Source: Spirochaetia bacterium
GTDB taxonomy: Bacteria > Spirochaetota > Spirochaetia > SZUA-6 > Bin103
Assembly: GCA_965203905.1 (NCBI GenBank)
Contig: CBDBDQ010000005.1
Span: 4,000,001 to 4,064,000, forward strand
DNA length: 64,000 bases
Direction of reading: 5' to 3'
Shown here: positions 17,880 through 64,000 of the stretch, piece by piece
How positions within the stretch are numbered: position 1 is the first letter of the stretch
Layout of the letters: every line of letters starts with the position of its first letter
The notes under the pieces: model-generated
Seen by the model: the letters and a program-made list of their open reading frames with translations, nothing else
Told to the model about the DNA's origin: nothing
Databases searched by the model: none
Program-made: the position numbers and the translations under genes

Positions 17880-18060
17880 CGCTCCCGATAGCCTGGGAGC
17901 CGATGTTGAACAAACGGTGATTGCCGAGTATGTCCGTATGTCGCCGTGATCCAAGGGCACCGCGTCGTGTCGCTGCCGTGCTCACCGGATTCGCGTGCGG
18001 ACGTGGCCGCATCACCAAGTCCATCGCCGGTATGTGGCACGCCTGAGCCATGTCGCAGTC
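17880..18060 (-). pseudogene. eroded remnant of a second sulfatase gene
   Basis: DILGNHRLFNIG and ACHIPAMDLV match DMLGNHRLFNKG and VCRTPAMDSV of the 15107-16535 sulfatase; the intervening sequence is missing. Confidence 0.6.
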
Positions 18061-18333
18061 TGACGGAATTGTGACGCGCTAATTTGGCCGAAAGAATGAG
18101 AACGATGAGAATGCTCGGCCGTTTACGCAACGGTGTCTCGCTGATACCATTACGACCAAGGCTTTCGAACACTCTGGCCTCCCTAACGAACGCCGCTCGG
18201 AGGTCCGCGGCTGTCCTGACTGACACGAGCCAGTGAAGACTCCGCTTGGAACACCCCAAGCGCGAACTGATTTTGGATCCTCTACTGATCGAAGAGTAGC
18301 TGATCCAACGAAAAGGCACGAAATGGAAGTAAA

Positions 18334-19194
18334 ATGAGAAGACTTCGAGCGCACTTTGATACGAACCTCATTCCTGACCCTCGGACGGTCTCGCAATCCG
18401 ACCCTCAGTCTGCGGGCTCATTCGCCGAACTTGTGAAGGAGGTCGCTTGGTTGTCCAACACTTTTCCGCACCAGCTCTTATTCTTCCGTGGTCAGACGAA
18501 CGACCACAAGAATAGAGCAGGTACAACTACAATTTATCCCAGCATTTATCGTGACGAACCTCTTCACAAGGAAGAAATTATGGCAAAGTACGAGGTGTTG
18601 GAAACGGCGGCCAACGACCTCGCAAATCGATTGTCTCAAAACCGCCATGAAGCACACTCGAGATGATCTAAAGAGGCGAAAGTACGTTCAGTGGAGCATC
18701 TTGCAACATTATATACGACGACTGAGTATGACGTCAAATCGGATCTGGACTTTGATCAACGTCTTGTCAGGAAGTTCTCGATACCGAACCGAGACAGCTT
18801 CTGGAAACCGAATGGTGGTCCTATTTCCGACCGCTTGTTGTTCCCTGAGAGCGATTTCGTCGCCGAGCTTTGTCGGGAGATCAAGACAGTCAGCGATCGG
18901 ATGGCGCTACCCGGAGAAATCGGCTCTTTCGTCCAAGGTTGGTCGCTTCTTGAAAAATCCCTTCCTTATCGTATAGATGTACCTAAGGATCGGATCCTGT
19001 CGACGGCTCAGACGATCACGAGGGGAAAAGAGTTTGGAAATATCACAATGGAAACGGCGGCAAAACTACATAATCTGCGTAGGATCAGGAATCTGGTTGT
19101 ACACGGAGCGCATGGGATCGACCCCGAACAGATTCGGACCGCACTCAACTTGCTCAGCGAGGTCATGTCGGATTTGGATATCGAGGTCGAATAG
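18334..19194 (+). pseudogene. FRG-domain protein with C-terminal HEPN-like helix; frameshifted and internally deleted
   Basis: LFFRGQ...YPSIYR, then WSILQHY in a second frame, expected TPLLD segment absent, then C-terminus with RRIRNLVVHG (RxxxxH) in a third frame. Confidence 0.7.
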
Positions 19195-19809
19195 AAGTTG
19201 TTGCGATTAGGTGGGGAATTATGGACTGATTATTCAGGATAACTGCGTCGATTGAGATGATGGCCAGAGCCTGGGGTGGTGTTCGGAGAGTTAGATCTTC
19301 GGACTCTAGGAGGAGGTTATGGGTGTAGACATTGGGCTCTGGTAGTCGCACAGGGGATGCTTGGTGTCGCTGAGCTTCATTGGTGCGACGAAGGTCAGGG
19401 ATTGGAAAGGTGGAGTTAAGCGGAGTATAGGATTATGGAGAAGTGTCAGTGGGCGACGCGTCGGCGTTGCAGACGTAGTCTAGATTGACGACACAGGCTG
19501 TGCGGTACAACAGCCGGTTGAGGATCAGGATTTGTTGGGGCGGTGGCGCAGGCACGCACCGACGCTGCGGATGATACTCTGAGGATTGACGGAGGCTGGC
19601 AGGGATGAGTGGACGCACCCATGGCCGATCGGAAGTGGCTCGATTTGTGGGGTCCGGCTGGCGGGAGCGTGATTACAGGGGTCTACGCGAGTGCTATAAT
19701 AACCTGGAGCGGAGACCGACGGATTCGCTGGTCGTTACCGGTACGCGTGTATGCGGGTACGGGGGGCGGATGATCGATTCGGCTCCAATGCTCAGCGGGG
19801 ACGCCGCGG

Positions 19810-20165
19810 TCACTTGTTGATGGTGCTGTCCAGGTGTCGGACATGATCTGTTCTTACGGCGTGATCTACAGGATGATCGGGAGCAGGACGTAGTTCATCA
19901 CGGCGGGAACGTAGGAGGGGTCGCAAGTGAGCTTTGGGATGAATTACCGTATCGTCACCTTCAGGGTGGTGGCTGTGCTCGGAGGAGGCTGCCAGGAACA
20001 CATACAGTAGTCCGTTCCAGGATCTGAGGAAGGTGAGCACCGCCGAACTGACCACCACCCGAGTGTCAGAATGACAGCGCGACGACCGACGTACGCCGCA
20101 AGCGAGTAGATCAGGAGCGAAATGACGGTGGGGAACGAGGTTGCCGACTTGGAGCGGAGTCGCAC
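19810..20165 (-). pseudogene. fragments of carbohydrate ABC permease gene
   Basis: VISLLIYSLAAY and AVLTFLRSWNGLLY resemble MalG-type permease segments, broken across frames. Confidence 0.45.
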
Positions 20166-20255
20166 GAAGCCGAACCCCGTCGCGTAGCCCTTAGGCTCTT
20201 AACCAGCGCCTGTGCGGGCAGCTTAGGCGCCATCAGACATGTGCGCGATGCACGT

Positions 20256-20783
20256 CTAATACTGAAACGCCCCAAGCTGGCGATGCCGTTCGGCCAAAGC
20301 CCCACCGAGTAACCAGCAGACCGGGCGTTCTTCACAGATCGTCGGATTGACCCACACGACGCGCGTCAGTTCTTGGACGTCAGCAGAAGCGCAACGCAAT
20401 GCTGAGCGCGCTCCCTCATCTTGGGAAATGACAACAAAATCAGTGGCGATTGCAGCTTCCACAAGATGTACGTCTTTGGCAACTGAATCTCTCTCACTAG
20501 GAATCGCGGTGGCAAGGACTCTCTCCCTGAAGTGCCTGTCATATGCTGTTTCGCTTCGCCAAAATAACTTTCTAGCATGCATGCTCGTGCGCCACCTCCT
20601 AGAGTACTTGGTCTGATGACGACCCCATTCCGAAAGGATCTCATCTGTTAACACCACACAGTGATTGGCGTCAAGTATAGCCAACAACAGCCTCCGACAT
20701 GCGCTTGAAATACGATGCCGCTTCTCGGTGGCAGAACCCAGTACATCAGCATCAACTACCAATCTTCGACATAGTCGCGCCAT
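20256..20783 (-). CDS. PIN-like domain protein, partner of upstream ATPase
   Basis: RLVVDADV ... KDVHLVEAAIATDFVVISQD acidic PIN-like pattern; 1-nt overlap with ATPase stop. Confidence 0.6.
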   Translation of the reverse strand: MARLCRRLVVDADVLGSATEKRHRISSACRRLLLAILDANHCVVLTDEILSEWGRHQTKYSRRWRTSMHARKLFWRSETAYDRHFRERVLATAIPSERDSVAKDVHLVEAAIATDFVVISQDEGARSALRCASADVQELTRVVWVNPTICEERPVCWLLGGALAERHRQLGAFQY

Positions 20784-22159
20784 CAGTCCTCTCTATGTCC
20801 CTCCACGGCATCGAGGTAAGCGCCTTCAGCCATCAACTCGACTTCGGCAAAATCCTCCGGCCAAGTTCCGAATGCTCCATCTTGATCTAAGTCTGCGCTG
20901 TCGATCAGGGTCATTCCACTCTCGGGGCTACGCGAGAACCAGTGTAGCTTGACAATTTGTGGATCGAGTTCACCTGCGGCGATCAACGTTTGAACTTGCA
21001 GAAGTAACAGTGCGCTATGCGTCTCCATGATGAGCTTTACACCCCGTCTTGCTGTCTCAGAAATCATCTGTGCCAGTCTATGTTGAGCGCGCGGATGCAA
21101 ATGTAGTTCCGGCTGTTCGACATAGACTATCTGTCCTCTTTGGGCGACAAGCATCGCAATCAAGATTGGCAGTACCTGAGACACTCCAATGCCTACTTGG
21201 GAGATACTTACAAGATCTGAGTCTCTTCGGTCCGATAGGGCGGCACGGCCGACGAGTATCTCGATCTGTGTATCATTAAGTTGTTTGGCGTAGACGGCTT
21301 TGGTCAGTCCGAGATCGGAGAGCATTCTTGCGAGTTGGGTCAATCTTGTGTCGTTGGTATCATGCCAGTGGGCGATAGTTGTAGCGACATATTTTTCGAA
21401 GGTGCCTAAAAAAGGGGGGCCGGGCGACGTCCTGCTGTGGGCGGGATCATTGGTGCTACGTAGACCAGGGATGTGAATCATGCGGTGCAGTTCGCTAGAA
21501 ACGAGACGCGAAGGAGATAAAAAGAGAAGGCTGCCAATGTTCTCTCGTGAGTCTTCGAGCGGTTCCAGGATGATCGAAAGAAAGCAGCGATCTCGTGAGA
21601 CTGCCAACTCATAACCAGGAGGAATGTATGGTTTGTATTTGAAGTTAGGAAGAAAGTTCGATAGGTACTCTTCCAACTTATTACCTCGTTGGTCTGGTCT
21701 TAGATGGAGACATCCGTGGCCATCTTGGGCTGTAGTACGATCGATTATCATTTCTTTAATCCGAAGTAATTTATTCTTTGAGCGAGCGAACGTGACCTTG
21801 TTTCGTACGTTCATTGGATGCTCTATTTCAACGCTAAAGGATTGATCTTCGGGAACATTCCGCAGACGGGAAAAGACCTGATCGACCGATCGGAACTTCA
21901 CGTGGGGGCCATCAAAGGAGAGGGCGCCAGAGTCGTATCCTGCCTCAAGGGTCTGTTTCAATAGGAAAAGAGGCTGCATTATACTTGACTTGCCAGAGCT
22001 GTTGGCTCCCGCTAGTATTGTCAGGGGACGGATTTCAATCCGGCATTCGTCCGCGAGAGACTTGTAACCTCGTACTGAGATCGCAGTGATCCCGTTGTTT
22101 TGGTCGCGATCGACATCACCGGTGGACGTTTGTTGTGACATAGTAGGCTTCCTTTGCAA
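20783..22159 (-). CDS. ABC-class ATPase (AAA_15/AAA_21) with DUF3696-like C-terminus
   Basis: GANSSGKS, QVGIGVSQVLP, YVEQPELHLHP, METHS, C-terminal DQDGAFGTWPEDF. Confidence 0.88.
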   Translation of the reverse strand: MQRKPTMSQQTSTGDVDRDQNNGITAISVRGYKSLADECRIEIRPLTILAGANSSGKSSIMQPLFLLKQTLEAGYDSGALSFDGPHVKFRSVDQVFSRLRNVPEDQSFSVEIEHPMNVRNKVTFARSKNKLLRIKEMIIDRTTAQDGHGCLHLRPDQRGNKLEEYLSNFLPNFKYKPYIPPGYELAVSRDRCFLSIILEPLEDSRENIGSLLFLSPSRLVSSELHRMIHIPGLRSTNDPAHSRTSPGPPFLGTFEKYVATTIAHWHDTNDTRLTQLARMLSDLGLTKAVYAKQLNDTQIEILVGRAALSDRRDSDLVSISQVGIGVSQVLPILIAMLVAQRGQIVYVEQPELHLHPRAQHRLAQMISETARRGVKLIMETHSALLLLQVQTLIAAGELDPQIVKLHWFSRSPESGMTLIDSADLDQDGAFGTWPEDFAEVELMAEGAYLDAVEGHRED

Positions 22160-22705
22160 TCCAATACGTTTCTATGTGGACTCAAGGGACATCTCTATCG
22201 AGGCCCGTGAACAAAGCGATGCTTCGCGTAAGGAAGTCGGGTAAAGATGGCCTTCGACCTCCAAGTGCATAGCTTCTGGCACTTTCAGCATATCGTGTGA
22301 CGTGAACTTGGTCAAAGCGGCGTTCGGGATTAGACGATCGCGAACCGGTCTCCATGCTGACGATGTTGTATCCGATCCTGCTTAGGCTACCTGCGATGGG
22401 GTGGAGTGGGCGGCCGTTTACATAGGCGCGCACCCGCAAGGGCATAGATAGGAGATTACCAACGAGAGGTCGTTGCCTGCTGGTCCGGGGGCGTTGCACG
22501 TTGCACAGAGCACTATCACGAAGAAATCAACAGGTGGGAGGGAGACGTGCATACCCAATACGACGCTGTGACGCCGGAATGGTCGAAATCAAATACGGGT
22601 TTGCGCACCGCGGTGACCAGGCCGCTACTGGAGCGAGCCATAGGATGCTGCGATCAAGCCCGGCGTCGATGTGCGCCGCGAGGATGGCGGGCTTCGGCGG
22701 TGGGG

Positions 22706-23611
22706 TCAGCCGGCGCGGCGGCGGGCGGCCTCCTCCATCAGGCGCTGGCGGGTGCCGTCCCAGGACGAGTAGTCACCGAGGGTCTCCGAGTGGCGGCTGC
22801 GCACCACCAGGGGCGGCCGGCAACTGTGGTCGAGGGCGGCCTGCAGGGCTTGGTCGCCGATGCGCTCCTGCTCGCTCTGCTCGCGGTAGCCCGGCGTCTC
22901 GCGGAAGCGCACGTCGACGCTCCAGCGCACGTCGTCGCTGCGGTTCACCCTGCTGCCGTGGAAGGTGAGGTTGTGGAACGCCAGGAGGTCACCGCAGCGC
23001 ATCGGCTCGGGCACCGGCGTGCCGCGCTGCTCCACGTCTTCGAAGCTCACCATGTTGTGGTCGGCGCGGCGCGCGCCCGGCAGCAGGCCCCACTTGTGGC
23101 TGCCGGGGATGAGGCACAGGCAGCCGTTGCGTTCGTCCACGTCGACCAGCGGAATCCACACCGAGATCACCAGGATGTGACCGGTTTCCGGGCCGTAGTA
23201 CTGGCTGTCCTGGTGCAGGGGAAAGGCGGTGTGCGGGCTGCCGGGGAGCTTGGGACGCAGGTGATAGTCGCCGTTGAAGGAGATCTCCGCGCCCAGCAGC
23301 GGCTGCAGGGCATCGAGGATCGCCTCGTGCCGCACCAGCGCGTACAGTTCGGGCGAGAACAGGAACGTGTTCCACGAGCGCAGGCGCGACTCCGAGTCGC
23401 GGTAGAGCAGCGCCAGCCGCCGCTCGAAGGAGGCGTCGGCGTGGATCGACTCGATGTCGCCCTTCGCCTGCAGCTCGCGCGCGTGGGCGTCGACGTTGCG
23501 GCCGATGAGATCGCGGATTGGCTGCAGCACGGAGTCGGGCAGCGCGTCGCGTACCACGAAGTAGCCGTCGCGGTCGAATTGCTCGGTCGGGGTAGGGGAG
23601 GTTTCCTGCAT
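22706..23611 (-). CDS. PhyH family dioxygenase
   Basis: FDRDGYFVVRD, PLHQDSQY, SVWIPLVD, IPGSH, FHNLTFHGS, RWSVDVR. Confidence 0.9.
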   Translation of the reverse strand: MQETSPTPTEQFDRDGYFVVRDALPDSVLQPIRDLIGRNVDAHARELQAKGDIESIHADASFERRLALLYRDSESRLRSWNTFLFSPELYALVRHEAILDALQPLLGAEISFNGDYHLRPKLPGSPHTAFPLHQDSQYYGPETGHILVISVWIPLVDVDERNGCLCLIPGSHKWGLLPGARRADHNMVSFEDVEQRGTPVPEPMRCGDLLAFHNLTFHGSRVNRSDDVRWSVDVRFRETPGYREQSEQERIGDQALQAALDHSCRPPLVVRSRHSETLGDYSSWDGTRQRLMEEAARRRAG

Positions 23612-41546: not shown

Positions 41547-41806
41547 GCTACGCACCCCACCGATTGTGTCTCCCGGCCCCCCGGCCGGCCGGCCCAGCCG
41601 GCTCCACCCCATTCGCCAGTAATGATACCATACGGCCTGACCTGCTTGGCGCGGTCCCTCGCCTACCGGATCGTAGCCAGGGCTGGCCGTACGCAGCCGG
41701 ATACCGTCCCACTCGGCGATGCCGCGGCGGTCGAAGGAGAGGCGCCGTCATCGCCCCGCGATGCCGGTGCGTACGCCCGGCGGTAGTCCCAGCGGCAGCG
41801 GGCAAT

Positions 41807-42563
41807 GCTGCGCGACAAGCCGGCTGCAAAATCGTTGCTCCCGCTACCCTCGACCGACACCCGACCGCCCAACTCTCACCCCGCCGAGCGCCGATCACAT
41901 GGCCCCGTCTGGCGGCGGCCCGTCCTCCCGATGCCGGAAGCGGTGGTGAGCAGAACAACGAAGCCTGAGATTACCCGGCTCAGCACTGCCGCCGAGCGCG
42001 AAGGGAACGATGTGGTCGAGTTCCAGCAGGAAGCGGGAGCCGCAGCGCCGCCCGCTATGCGGATCGACGAAACTGCAGCAGCCGCCGTCGCGGCGCCACA
42101 CCTCGCGCCGCACTGGTGCCGGAATGTACCGGGATCGACGCGCCCGGTGGGACGGCTGCGCGCTGCCTGCGGACGGGCCGGCTGGCGCCGCCTGCGTGCG
42201 CGAACGGCCATCGAGCGGCGCTCCTGCCCGCGTTGCCGCCCCTGCCCGCTTCGCTGGCGAAGGAGCGTGGCGACCGCGGTCCACCGCTGCCCGCGCGGTC
42301 GGCATGCTCTGGTCTGCCGGCGGCGTCGGTACGGGGGCGCGGGACCCGCAACCAGCCACCAACTTCGCCGCCGAAGGAGTGGTGCCGGGCGCCGCCAGCG
42401 CTGGCTTTGCACGCACCGGGGAGCTGCCCCTGCAAGTCTCGCGCCCCGCCGGCGGCGCGGACAGCGCTGCCACCGCCGAGGTGCCGGCGCCGCCAATCCC
42501 GCGCGCGGGTTCCGCTACGGACAGCGCTGCCGGCGCCGGGGTGCTGCCACCGGCGCTCGTGCC
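41807..42563. repeat. dispersed repeat, homologous to 63277-64000
   Basis: Alignable by eye over 3' tail, HNH domain and linker, with substitutions and in-frame indels. Confidence 0.95.
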
Positions 42564-43490
42564 CTCCGACGGCGTCGCCACTCCGGGTTGCTCTTGCGCG
42601 CCCGACTTCGCTGGCGAAGTCGCCCCGCCTGCCGGCCCTTGCTGCGCCTTCGGCTCCGGCGCCTGGCCCGCGCTTGCCTCCCGGCGCCCACCTCTGCGCC
42701 CGCGCGGCGGCCGCCCCGGGTCGTAGCGCTGCAGGCCGTCCTGCACCAGCCGCTCCACGAGCTGCCCGACCGTCAGGTGCGGGTCCACGTGCGACAGCAG
42801 TGCCCGTAGCTGCTCGATCCCGCACTGACACGCGGCGTCGATCACCACCTTCAGCTCCCAGCGGCCGTCGCCCAGCGCGCGCATGCGATCGGCCGGCCGC
42901 GCCAGCTTGGGAGCCACCCCGGCCAACAACTGCTTCACCTCGCGGGTGCTCTTGCCGCTCGCCTGCTCCACCAGCTCCTGCCGCTGCGCCGCGTCCAGCG
43001 CCGGCACCGGTCGCGCTGGCGCCGCTGCCGCGGCCCCCGAAGCCCCCGCCTCCAGCGCCGTCCCCGTGCCGGCCGGCAGCAGCTCCGGTGCCGCGGATGC
43101 CGAGCCGGGGTCCGTGGCGGCGGTCGCCGTGCGCTGCAGGAGATCGAAGGTGTTCTGCAACTGCGCCGCCGCGCTCAGGGAGAGCGAGCCGTCCTGCAGC
43201 CGCTCGCGTGTCCCGGCGGTATCGGAGCACAGGCGCATGGCTTTGATACGGCGCCAGGCGGCACCCTCGCTATAGCCCAGCTCGCGCACGGCGTAGTCGA
43301 ACAGGCTGGAGAACCCGAGGCGCAGATGGAGGTGGCGTGCGTGGATCTCGCGCAGGTGGTCGAGGACGGCGAGCTGCAGCGCCTGCTCGTGCAGGACGAG
43401 GGACCTGGTGTGCGCCAGCAGCACTTGGTCGGGGAGCCCGGAGAGCGAGGAGGAGAAGCTGGTGGCGGTCGCGGAATCCACGGAATCCAT
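41895..43490 (-). CDS. HNH endonuclease with DUF222-like N-terminal domain and long low-complexity linker
   Basis: LGFSSLFDYAVRELGYSEGAAWRRI N-terminus; RYIPAPVRREVWRRDGGCC...RC...LELDHIVPFALGG...NLRLRCSAHH. Confidence 0.88.
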   Translation of the reverse strand: MDSVDSATATSFSSSLSGLPDQVLLAHTRSLVLHEQALQLAVLDHLREIHARHLHLRLGFSSLFDYAVRELGYSEGAAWRRIKAMRLCSDTAGTRERLQDGSLSLSAAAQLQNTFDLLQRTATAATDPGSASAAPELLPAGTGTALEAGASGAAAAAPARPVPALDAAQRQELVEQASGKSTREVKQLLAGVAPKLARPADRMRALGDGRWELKVVIDAACQCGIEQLRALLSHVDPHLTVGQLVERLVQDGLQRYDPGRPPRGRRGGRREASAGQAPEPKAQQGPAGGATSPAKSGAQEQPGVATPSEGTSAGGSTPAPAALSVAEPARGIGGAGTSAVAALSAPPAGRETCRGSSPVRAKPALAAPGTTPSAAKLVAGCGSRAPVPTPPADQSMPTARAAVDRGRHAPSPAKRAGAATRAGAPLDGRSRTQAAPAGPSAGSAQPSHRARRSRYIPAPVRREVWRRDGGCCSFVDPHSGRRCGSRFLLELDHIVPFALGGSAEPGNLRLRCSAHHRFRHREDGPPPDGAM

Positions 43491-43496
43491 GGCGTA

Positions 43497-43504
43497 AATA
43501 TAAG
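43497..43504. promoter_or_regulatory. overlapping divergent -10 elements (leaderless HNH mRNA / + strand RNA)
   Basis: Minus-strand TATATT (43497-43502) 6 nt before the ATG with no RBS; plus-strand TATAAG (43499-43504). Confidence 0.45.
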
Positions 43505-43505
43505 C

Positions 43506-43705
43506 ATGGCTGAGAAATGACGGGTTTCGGTGAGTCCCGGACCGGCATCGGGAAGGGCTCAGGCCGGCGCTGGTGGGGTGCTGGAGGGCCTGGAAGGCCA
43601 GGCGGGATGTTCGCAGGGTCGGAAGGGCCGGAACGTGCGGCAGGAGGCCGTCACGAGCAGCGCCAAACCCGTCAAGTGCTCAGCGCATTTTTTGGGCACC
43701 TTTTC
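43506..43705 (+). ncRNA. candidate structured ncRNA divergent from HNH gene
   Basis: Closing stems 43518-27/43665-74 and 43509-14/43679-84, five or more internal helices with G-U pairs favouring + strand, T6 at 43688-93. Confidence 0.55.
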
Positions 43706-44066
43706 TGCTGAATCCTGCACCGCGGCGCCGACATGCCCAGCAACGCATCGGCGGAGACCGGCGCGTTGCTGGTGGCGGCTATCCCCTCTTTTCTGGACAC
43801 GTCGTACAGCGAACGAGCCACACACCCAGAAGGCGGCGATCTGGCAGGCGCCGCGCCGGGGCCATCACCGCAGCTCGCCCACGCACGGAATGCAGACGTC
43901 ATTCAGCATGGGATCGCCTTGGTCCGCCCGCACGCGACCCACACCCGGCACGCAGCGCAGGCGCCGGCGTGCTGCCGGCAGACGTGTCTGCGGCATGTGT
44001 GCCACACTCCGCGTCGGTGTTGCGACACGGCGAGGCGATGCCCGCTGCCAATACCACCCGCTCCTC

Positions 44067-63276: not shown

Positions 63277-64000
63277 GCTGCGCGACAAGCCGGCTGCAAG
63301 TCGTTGCTCCCGCTGCCCTCGGACCGACACGCGAACCCTCAACTCGCACCCCGGGGAGCGCCGATCACGTGGCCCCGTCTGGCGGCATTCCGTACTCCCG
63401 ATGCCGCAAGCGGTGGTGGGCGGCACACGACAAGGACAAGTTCCCTGGCTCGGCGCTGCCGCCGAGCGCGAAGGGAACGATGTGGTCGAGCTCCAGCAGG
63501 AAGCGGGAGCCGCAGCGCCGCCCGCTGTGCGGATCGACGTAAGTGCAGCAGCCACCGTCGCGGCGCCACACCTCGCGCCTCACTGGTGCCGGAATGTACC
63601 GTGATCGCCCCGCCCGGTGGGGCGGCTTCACGCTGCCTCCGGACGGGCCGGCTGCCTCGGGCTGCGGCCGCGAACGGCCATCGAGCTGCGCCGCCCCTCC
63701 CCGCTTCGCTGGCGAAGGAGCGTGGCGGCCGCGGCCCGCCGCTGCCACCGCGGTCGGCACGCTCTGGTCTGCCGGCGGCGTAGGTACGGAGGCGCGGGAC
63801 CCGCAACCAGCCACCAACTTCGCCGCCGAAGGAGTGGTTCCGGGCGCCGCCACCGCTGGCTTGCCACGAACCGCGCCCCTGCAAGTCTCGCGCCCTGACA
63901 GCGCTGCCATCGCCGAGGCGTCGGCGCCGCCACTCCCGCGCGCGGGTTCCGCTGCGGACAGCGCTGCCGGCGCCGGGGTGCTGCCACGGGTGATCGTGCC
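63277..64000 (-). mobile_element. putative HNH element, copy 2 (partial, runs off window)
   Basis: Same 3' tail, HNH domain and linker as copy 1. Confidence 0.65.
63365..64000 (-). CDS. HNH endonuclease, second copy (C-terminal part)
   Basis: Open to window edge; RYIPAPVRREVWRRDGGCC...DHIVPFALGGSAEPGNLSLSCAAHH. Confidence 0.88.
   Translation of the reverse strand, partial: GTITRGSTPAPAALSAAEPARGSGGADASAMAALSGRETCRGAVRGKPAVAAPGTTPSAAKLVAGCGSRASVPTPPADQSVPTAVAAAGRGRHAPSPAKRGGAAQLDGRSRPQPEAAGPSGGSVKPPHRAGRSRYIPAPVRREVWRRDGGCCTYVDPHSGRRCGSRFLLELDHIVPFALGGSAEPGNLSLSCAAHHRLRHREYGMPPDGAT

Follow-up and report, generated by a model that had tools for sequence, protein, structure and literature searches.

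An HNH nuclease gene carried by a multicopy, transposase-free cassette with ISAs1-type ends in a Spirochaetia genome

Mobile insertion cassettes (MICs) are passenger-carrying, non-autonomous derivatives of insertion sequences (ISs), for example MIC231 of the IS231/IS4 group. The mycobacterial repeat REP13E12 (the '13E12 repeat') is a multicopy DUF222-HNH gene whose product has a helical N-terminal part and a C-terminal HNH domain, and which serves as the attachment site of an integrating element; the phiRv1 prophage, which lies in REP13E12, uses a serine integrase. Here we analyze a repeated unit of about 2.1 kb that encodes one HNH protein and lies on the minus strand of a 64,000-nucleotide stretch from a Spirochaetia bacterium (contig positions C5:4000001-4064000, referred to below as the window). 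The source genome comprises five contigs, 7.99 Mb in total, with 66% G+C. The unit has the ends of an IS of the ISAs1 family and encodes no transposase, and we argue that it is most probably a cassette of the MIC kind whose passenger is the nuclease gene.

A blastn search with this region against the whole genome found 70 matching places, among them 38 near-full copies that span the open reading frame (ORF) and 33 full-length copies of the unit. A first-pass annotation, made from the window, had counted two copies and thus understated the family, while its second, diverged copy some 21 kb away is real: the two align at 85.7% identity over 760 nt and 78.8% over 222 aa. Only the 3' third of this second copy is visible in the window because the copy runs off the window end; in the whole-genome sequence its complete ORF of 520 aa is intact. 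The limits first assigned to the element (41807-43705) also had to be moved. The depth of blastn matches climbs from 1 to 36-59 between about window positions 41805 and 43920, the unit extends about 200 nt further on its 5' side, and the window copy occupies 41780-43921. In 35 of the 38 near-full copies the ORF is intact (480-570 aa), its frame running uninterrupted between a conserved ATG and the HNH motif. As had been stated, the indels are in frame: length variation is confined to the disordered linker. The inside of the unit holds no transposase, integrase or reverse transcriptase gene, also in agreement with the initial description. About a dozen of the matching places belong to a second HNH subfamily, with approximately 55% identity in protein and 75% in DNA, and homology between this subfamily and that of the window begins at the conserved upstream block (43504-43690). 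One copy of about 230 bp (C5:5072037-5072269) has its interior deleted and both ends kept.

Collecting all copies and aligning their flanks confirmed the repeat. It also revealed terminal inverted repeats (TIRs) of 16-17 nt and target-site duplications (TSDs) of 8-10 bp, the latter having been reported as absent. The TIRs are imperfect, and the aligned copy ends give the consensus CAGGrnnATCCCAyGCT. The unit starts with CAGGGCCATCCCATGCT and ends with AGCGTGGGATAGTCCTG, which reads CAGGACTATCCCACGCT as the reverse complement. Both repeats could be located in 25 of the 33 full-length copies. When the flanking words are fixed at 9 bp, they match at 9/9 in six copies, at 8/9 in three and at 7/9 in one; with 8-10 bp allowed (mostly 9), the TSD is perfect in 8/25 copies and at least 85% matched in 13/25. 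As a control, 600 mismatched left/right pairings gave 2 perfect matches and 3 at 85% or better. The 13 recognisable TSDs are all different words, and there is therefore no single target site.

The parentage of these ends can be traced in related genomes. The motif CAGGRNNATCCCAYGCT was sought with up to 1 mismatch in 24 genomes of the bacterial family, where controls gave 0-1 matches. It occurs 73 times in the source genome (0 for the reversed control) and 106 times in a congener, G008, where many matches are paired about 124 nt apart; other genomes have fewer. In a second congener, G010, the motif bounds a 2,130-bp element with a 604-aa frame for an ISAs1-family transposase (NF033564, 150.7 bits, cut-off 70; also PF13808 and PF01609) that carries a DruA-like domain at its N-terminus. 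The 9-bp TSDs of this element are perfect in both of the two copies examined. The motif pairs in G008 correspond to a miniature element of 141 bp that has ends of the ISAs1 type and is present in about 50 copies; the single copy examined (L179, C8:9434-9574) has a perfect 9-bp TSD, and a search of G008 for the HNH protein found nothing. The same type of ends also encloses other genes. In the genome G006 they hold a canonical DUF222-HNH gene (PF02720, E 2e-20), and in the source genome a YhgA-like 'Transposase_31' gene (PF04754, E 1e-15) as well as a second PD-(D/E)xK-like gene; these cases could be relevant to the naming of such nucleases as putative transposases. PMC11946415 gives ISAs1 elements inverted repeats of 14-22 bp that start with CAGGG, and 10-bp direct repeats; the entry for ISArsp11 in Table 3 of PMC6305408 has inverted repeats starting with CAGGGCT and a 10-bp direct repeat.

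With ISAs1 ends, no transposase and one passenger, the unit is best read as a non-autonomous ISAs1-family derivative, a MIC moved in trans, to which we assign a probability of roughly 0.8. An ISAs1 DDE transposase supplied in trans would bind the 17-nt inverted repeats and insert the unit through a 9-bp staggered cut, and the HNH protein would ride along as a passenger, not as the transposase, kept by selection while the family spread. We infer copying by a transposase in trans from the ends, the duplication length, the congener's element and the known behaviour of the ISAs1 family. The description of the element as selfish and mobile, with many copies, no transposase and its HNH gene intact, stands, whereas the proposal of a new system on a ribonucleoprotein basis gives way to ISAs1 ends and a search in which no RNA partner was found. 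As ISAs1 transposase is no longer intact in the source genome, the roughly 45 copies there are most likely immobile now. An autonomous partner inside the source genome was considered and rejected: a scan for the TIR as a 16-mer that tolerated up to 3 mismatches (174 matches, 53 of them in known copies), an ISAs1 hidden Markov model (HMM) and tblastn led to transposase fragments and YhgA-like passengers only.

The ages of the copies are consistent with this state. Nearest-neighbour dS between HNH copies ranges from 0.043 to 0.184, without any near-identical pair; for a DDE-encoding IS of this genome, four additional copies, full or near-full, are 99.2-100% identical to the query copy. Such a distribution of ages is compatible with a family that was left behind when its helper was lost. 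In the 13 copies whose TSD is recognisable, mismatches number about 0.4 per 9 bp, much fewer than the neutral diversity of 0.14-0.20 between copies would give. Most of the divergence thus seems to have accumulated ahead of insertion, while lineages were propagating and the gene was of use; the subset is biased to young insertions. We also looked for sites that lack the element. For one copy with a perfect TSD the orthologous intergenic site was examined in five congeners: 5/5 lack the element there, and the genes flanking that site are 83-89% identical; copies fixed at syntenic loci with no empty alleles, the outcome that would have spoken against mobility, were thus not what we observed. No base-exact empty site came from the five congeners because their intergenic DNA is too diverged to align to the insertion point. 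Contigs from four runs were examined as well, regions without cover being uninformative; a single contig, from run X2, connects the two flanks, and 39 unrelated letters stand there instead of the element and about 90 nt of flanking sequence.

The passenger protein ends in an HNH domain. PF01844 (Pfam HNH) matches the window ORF weakly at aa 482-521 (E 2e-4); apart from a sub-threshold match of this stretch to the HNH part of IscB, the database searches gave nothing else for the ORF. An alignment of 15 members (47-53% identity) resolves a conserved N-terminal domain and a middle domain, separated by a variable spacer, and then a long variable linker that leads to the HNH domain, in which the D-H, N and H-H residues and three cysteines are invariant, so the initial assessment of intact HNH and zinc-binding residues was correct. 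AlphaFold predicts confident helices for aa 20-125 (pLDDT >90), an HNH domain at 81-90, a middle domain of moderate confidence and disordered linkers. Foldseek returned no match in the PDB at E up to 0.001. Structure comparison with VIA-align matched the C-terminal part to HNH nucleases alone (McrA, IscB-HNH, GVE2 HNH and Gme HNH; Z 5.6-7.2), and the N-terminal part to ParB/KorB/Spo0J-like proteins with Z 4.5-5.7 (KorB 5.7, ParB 5.6), which is below the trustworthy level for helical folds. The helical N-terminal part is probably DNA-binding.

The ORF had been described as a DUF222-like domain, a linker and an HNH domain. The C-terminal HNH domain and the disordered linker are confirmed; the first element is not matched by Pfam, as the window protein has no PF02720 (DUF222) match at E up to 0.1 and the two relatives that touch this model, among 14 scanned, stay below threshold (E approximately 1e-3, 17.6-18.4 bits, cut-off 24.4). 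In a profile search 27,434 cluster representatives match the protein family at E up to 1e-3. 'DUF222-like' thus denotes a distant likeness, weakly supported, and not Pfam membership. The dN/dS analysis that had been proposed as a check, carried out on the 35 intact copies (595 pairs), gave 0.33 for the N-terminal domain, 0.91 for the linker and 0.25 for the HNH domain, indicating purifying selection in the folded domains.

Several observations weigh against a simple passenger moved in trans. Mobilisation in trans rests on the congener's element, as the source genome has no autonomous ISAs1 partner and no intact ISAs1 transposase: the HMM search gave one 28-bit fragment, and tblastn with the G010 protein matched aa 419-550 and 563-590 only. 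Beyond the terminal 17 nt, of which 13-15 are identical, the unit showed no subterminal homology with the G010 ISAs1 element, and its match to the miniature element and to the other cassettes is likewise confined to the terminal 17-23 nt. No clear transposase remnant was found in the unit by blastx, with a best E of 0.034 against the ISAs1 transposase and of 0.07 against two ISKra4 transposases, both non-significant. Among the 25 copies with both repeats, 12 have no TSD match and would need a second process, for example recombination or exchange between copies. The element-free alleles that we see are in diverged relatives and are not base-exact empty sites. For a mere passenger the ORF is also unusually well kept (35/38 intact, dN/dS 0.25-0.33 in the two folded domains), and the passengers found in ISAs1 shells and in those of the ISKra4 family, described next, are without exception nuclease-like, an outcome that would not be predicted from random capture.

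Of 23 genomes of the same bacterial family, 20 contain the HNH protein family in dozens of copies; it was found in none of 17 genomes that belong to the order but to other families. Given the stricter first-pass search, these counts represent a floor. In G010 the HNH copies have other ends, GGGCGCAYTTCCAA..., with 9-bp duplications. The GGGCGCAYTTCCAA motif has 95 matches in that genome, compared with 1 for the control, and it bounds at least 8 further units of 1,523 bp (eight motif pairs with identical spacing). The one such unit examined in full encodes a 467-aa ISKra4-family transposase (NF033572, 214.6 bits, cut-off 205). The source genome has one full related ISKra4 element at about C5:2122460-2124030, with the TSD CAATCCTGG. 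HNH subfamily 2 has the ends of this element, and its units retain a piece of the C-terminus of the element's transposase and share with this parent element arms of about 150 nt and 300 nt. HNH subfamily 2 and the G010 copies sit in ISKra4-family shells whose autonomous partners are present. In two G010 copies (L076 and L095) the 5' non-coding part of the cassette runs on into an open frame, which we presume to resemble the C-termini of DNA methyltransferases, and in the G010 cassette the 3' repeat core recurs internally, about 110 nt ahead of the HNH start; the frame and the internal repeat core may be traces of gene capture. YhgA-like genes as general riders of ISKra4 shells in G010 were considered and rejected, with both repeats found at 0/10 loci and one repeat at 3/10.

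Within a single bacterial family, one protein family recurs in ISAs1 and in ISKra4 shells, which are unrelated. This, together with the DUF222-HNH gene in the ISAs1 shell of G006, raises the question whether the nuclease does more than ride. The HNH protein might drive the success of the cassette, for instance by cutting transposase genes or full-length ISs so that repair templated by an HNH-bearing copy converts them, a form of homing into IS shells, or by increasing the number of cassettes in some other way, with a DDE transposase still performing the insertion. Purifying selection on the folded domains and not on the linker speaks for this, as do the low number of TSD mismatches relative to neutral diversity, albeit in a subset biased toward good TSDs, and the extinction of ISAs1 transposase in a genome that retains 35 intact HNH copies. 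The arms of about 150 and 300 nt that subfamily 2 shares with its parent IS could be read in the same way, but they are equally expected from simple internal replacement. Open ORFs could also be kept by host benefit or by gene conversion among copies, YhgA-like genes in G010 are not generally found in such shells, and both the target and the cutting are hypothetical. We therefore regard a driving role for the nuclease as unlikely. A broader version, which we offer as speculation with somewhat longer odds, is that DUF222-type HNH genes habitually parasitise ISs: they would replace the transposase within unrelated IS ends, be selected at the level of the cassette and perhaps convert or outcompete the parent IS.

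The possibility that the HNH protein is itself the transposase, making the unit an autonomous TIR transposon of a new catalytic class with ISAs1-like ends, was first suggested by the TIRs and TSDs and was dropped once ISKra4 and ISAs1 elements with the same ends and their own transposases were found. The protein is the sole product of the unit, its gene is intact in 35/38 copies and under purifying selection, the genome has no ISAs1 transposase, and the N-terminal domain, by its weak structural match, may bind DNA. However, the same ends and TSD length occur on the DDE-encoding ISAs1 element and on the passenger-free 141-bp elements of congeners, the same protein family lies elsewhere between quite different, ISKra4-type ends, and there is no recent copy despite 35 intact genes. 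We know of no ββα-Me (HNH-fold) nuclease that acts as a lone transposase, and the portion of the literature consulted on HNH elements with TIRs and TSDs likewise gave none. We consider such an activity very improbable.

Along the unit, diversity amounts to 0.14-0.20 in the initial ~240 nt as well as in the long linker and the 3' tail, and falls to 0.02-0.04 in parts of the ORF. The conserved upstream block, which is also less diverse than its surroundings, may be regulatory. In 28/28 aligned copies TATATTTAC precedes the ATG with GCC in between (one copy has CCC and another GGCC), and at the corresponding place the HNH copies of a congener have TTGACT, 17 nt, TATATT, 6 nt and ATG. A -10-like hexamer 6 nt before the ATG fits a leaderless passenger mRNA, as had been proposed. 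The upstream region had further been called a divergent structured region, which the folding results do not bear out: it has no Rfam match, its single-sequence fold has z = -1.84, and RNAalifold found compensatory changes in 0/36 predicted pairs, a weak test because the 28 copies are about 90% alike. Within the conserved block, the strand that does not encode the HNH protein has a terminator-like hairpin with a T-rich run after it (43676-43699, plus strand); the A-run is nearly invariant among copies.

An RNA-guided nuclease of the IscB/HEARO type, with the ~430-nt upstream region as its guide or scaffold RNA, could draw on the conserved block (diversity 0.07-0.10 against 0.14-0.20 neutral), on this hairpin and on the resemblance to the IscB HNH domain (Z 6.0-6.6), but we regard it as scarcely credible, given that there is no RuvC domain, that the IscB model matches aa 460-522 only, the HNH part, at 15.9 bits (cut-off 175), that the searches for a structured RNA were negative as described, that in some congener HNH copies the repeat directly adjoins the promoter and most of the upstream region is missing, and that IS200/605-type elements are not known to leave TIRs with 9-bp TSDs at varied targets.

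Table 1. Features of the window copy and of related or inserted elements. Plain coordinates are window positions; those with a contig prefix are genome positions.
Feature	Position	Strand	Remarks
TSD, copy adjoining 5' inverted repeat	43922..43930	-	CGGGCGGAC on minus strand; 8/9 match to the 9-mer past the degenerate 3' repeat
5' terminal inverted repeat, ISAs1 type	43905..43921	-	CAAGGCGATCCCATGCT; 17-nt motif common to 25/33 copies and the congener's ISAs1 transposase element
5' non-coding stretch	43691..43904	-	Approximately neutral rate; pairwise diversity 0.14-0.20, as linker and 3' tail
Conserved upstream block	43504..43690	-	Diversity 0.07-0.15; invariant CTTGACGGG
TATATT, -10-like hexamer	43497..43502	-	6 nt before ATG; TATATTTAC invariant in 28 copies
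Passenger ORF, 531 aa	41895..43490	-	Helical N-terminal domain, disordered linkers, middle domain, C-terminal HNH
N-terminal helical domain, aa 20-125	43116..43433	-	pLDDT >90; weak ParB/KorB-type likeness
Island attachment site (codons ~62-68), intact in window copy	43288..43307	-	Three split copies elsewhere in the genome overlap at q744-763
HNH nuclease domain, aa 455-522	41925..42128	-	Pfam PF01844, alignment, structure matches
3' non-coding tail	41807..41894	-	Common to other copies
13-nt insertion	41794..41806	-	Window copy only
Degenerate 3' inverted repeat	41780..41793	-	GCTGGGACTACCGC vs the family's GCGTGGGATAGTCCTG
TSD, 3' copy	41771..41779	-	CGGGCGTAC
Second copy of the same element, 3' part	63263/63277..64000	-	Remainder beyond window, up to genome C5:4065352
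Islands	C5:1894039-1960757; C5:4749553-4817210; C3:29559-99788		
IS66-type IS in cassettes	L035 C5:4667500-4672600; L036 C5:7575500-7580700		
ISAs1-type ends around YhgA-like / PD-(D/E)xK-like genes	C5:5515052-5516341, C5:3261700, C5:6957520, C5:6668207; G006 C156 (L178)		

The cassettes are themselves entered by other elements (Table 1). Three islands of 67-70 kb split three HNH copies at one site in the ORF, the pieces overlapping by 18-20 nt at codons ~62-68, and in 3/3 islands a tyrosine integrase gene (a 435-445-aa frame) lies about 800 bp from the junction. A 2.6-kb IS with an IS66-family transposase (PF03050) and a DruA-like gene (PF14236) interrupts two cassettes within about 50 nt of the HNH start codon; the genome has six identical DruA-like matches of this IS, and thus 2/6 copies are in the small cassette target. 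In these genomes the DruA-like domain (formerly DUF4338) is associated with ISs of three families. The G010 ISAs1 transposase (L175) carries it as a fusion, beside the IS66-family transposase (L035) it is a separate ORF, and it has a tblastn match inside a 2.9-kb element (C5:5005554-5008474) whose 537-aa frame resembles an ISKra4 transposase by pairwise likeness (34.7% identity over aa 298-446). Elsewhere in the window, positions 18001-23000 have 49-61% G+C, compared with 64-75% in the remainder, with a strong GC-skew spike at 19001-20000, and may be foreign DNA.

With the ends pointing to a borrowed ISAs1 transposase, a candidate for a nuclease-driven or RNA-guided mobile system becomes an explained case. 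The question that can now be put to the test is why nuclease genes recur as passengers of several IS families and are selected in dozens of copies. Should a nuclease help its cassette to displace the parent IS, this would amount to hyperparasitism among bacterial transposons and give a lead on the actinobacterial DUF222-HNH repeats. For annotation the case is a caution, as multicopy 'HNH endonuclease' genes may mark dead IS shells.

Among known systems, homing endonuclease genes can be set aside because the targets vary, all 13 TSDs being different. IscB/HEARO (OMEGA) elements resemble the unit in having an HNH domain of similar fold and in being transposon-borne nucleases without a transposase of their own; the unit is not one of them because it has no RuvC domain (the AlphaFold model contains no further fold of that kind), because no partner RNA was detected and because its ends, with the TIRs and TSDs of a DDE family, are of the wrong type. 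REP13E12 is like the unit in being multicopy, in combining a helical N-terminal part with a C-terminal HNH domain and in offering its ORF as an attachment site. It differs in that the window protein does not reach Pfam DUF222 and, compared with phiRv1, in that the islands in the HNH cassettes carry a tyrosine integrase. If habitual parasitism of ISs were true, it would explain multicopy HNH genes without visible mobility, REP13E12 included. The parts of the literature that we consulted on DUF222-HNH genes, on HNH elements with TIRs and TSDs and on REP13E12 hold no account of such a cassette.

The ISAs1 ISs share with the unit inverted repeats of 16-17 nt starting with CAGGG or CAGGA and a TSD of 8-10 bp, mostly 9, and a congener element with the same ends encodes the transposase. 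The unit itself has neither a DDE transposase nor a clear remnant of one, and because no transposase is encoded it is a derivative and not an IS. MICs are the closest counterpart. We know of no ISAs1-derived MIC, in a comparison that included no dedicated search for one, and the unit departs from those described in its ISAs1 parent, its roughly 45 copies, a nuclease passenger under selection and an autonomous partner that is missing from the genome. It agrees with them in its IS-type inverted repeats and target duplications, in lacking a transposase, in carrying a single passenger and in being presumably mobilised in trans; gene-free miniature relatives of the unit occur in a congener.

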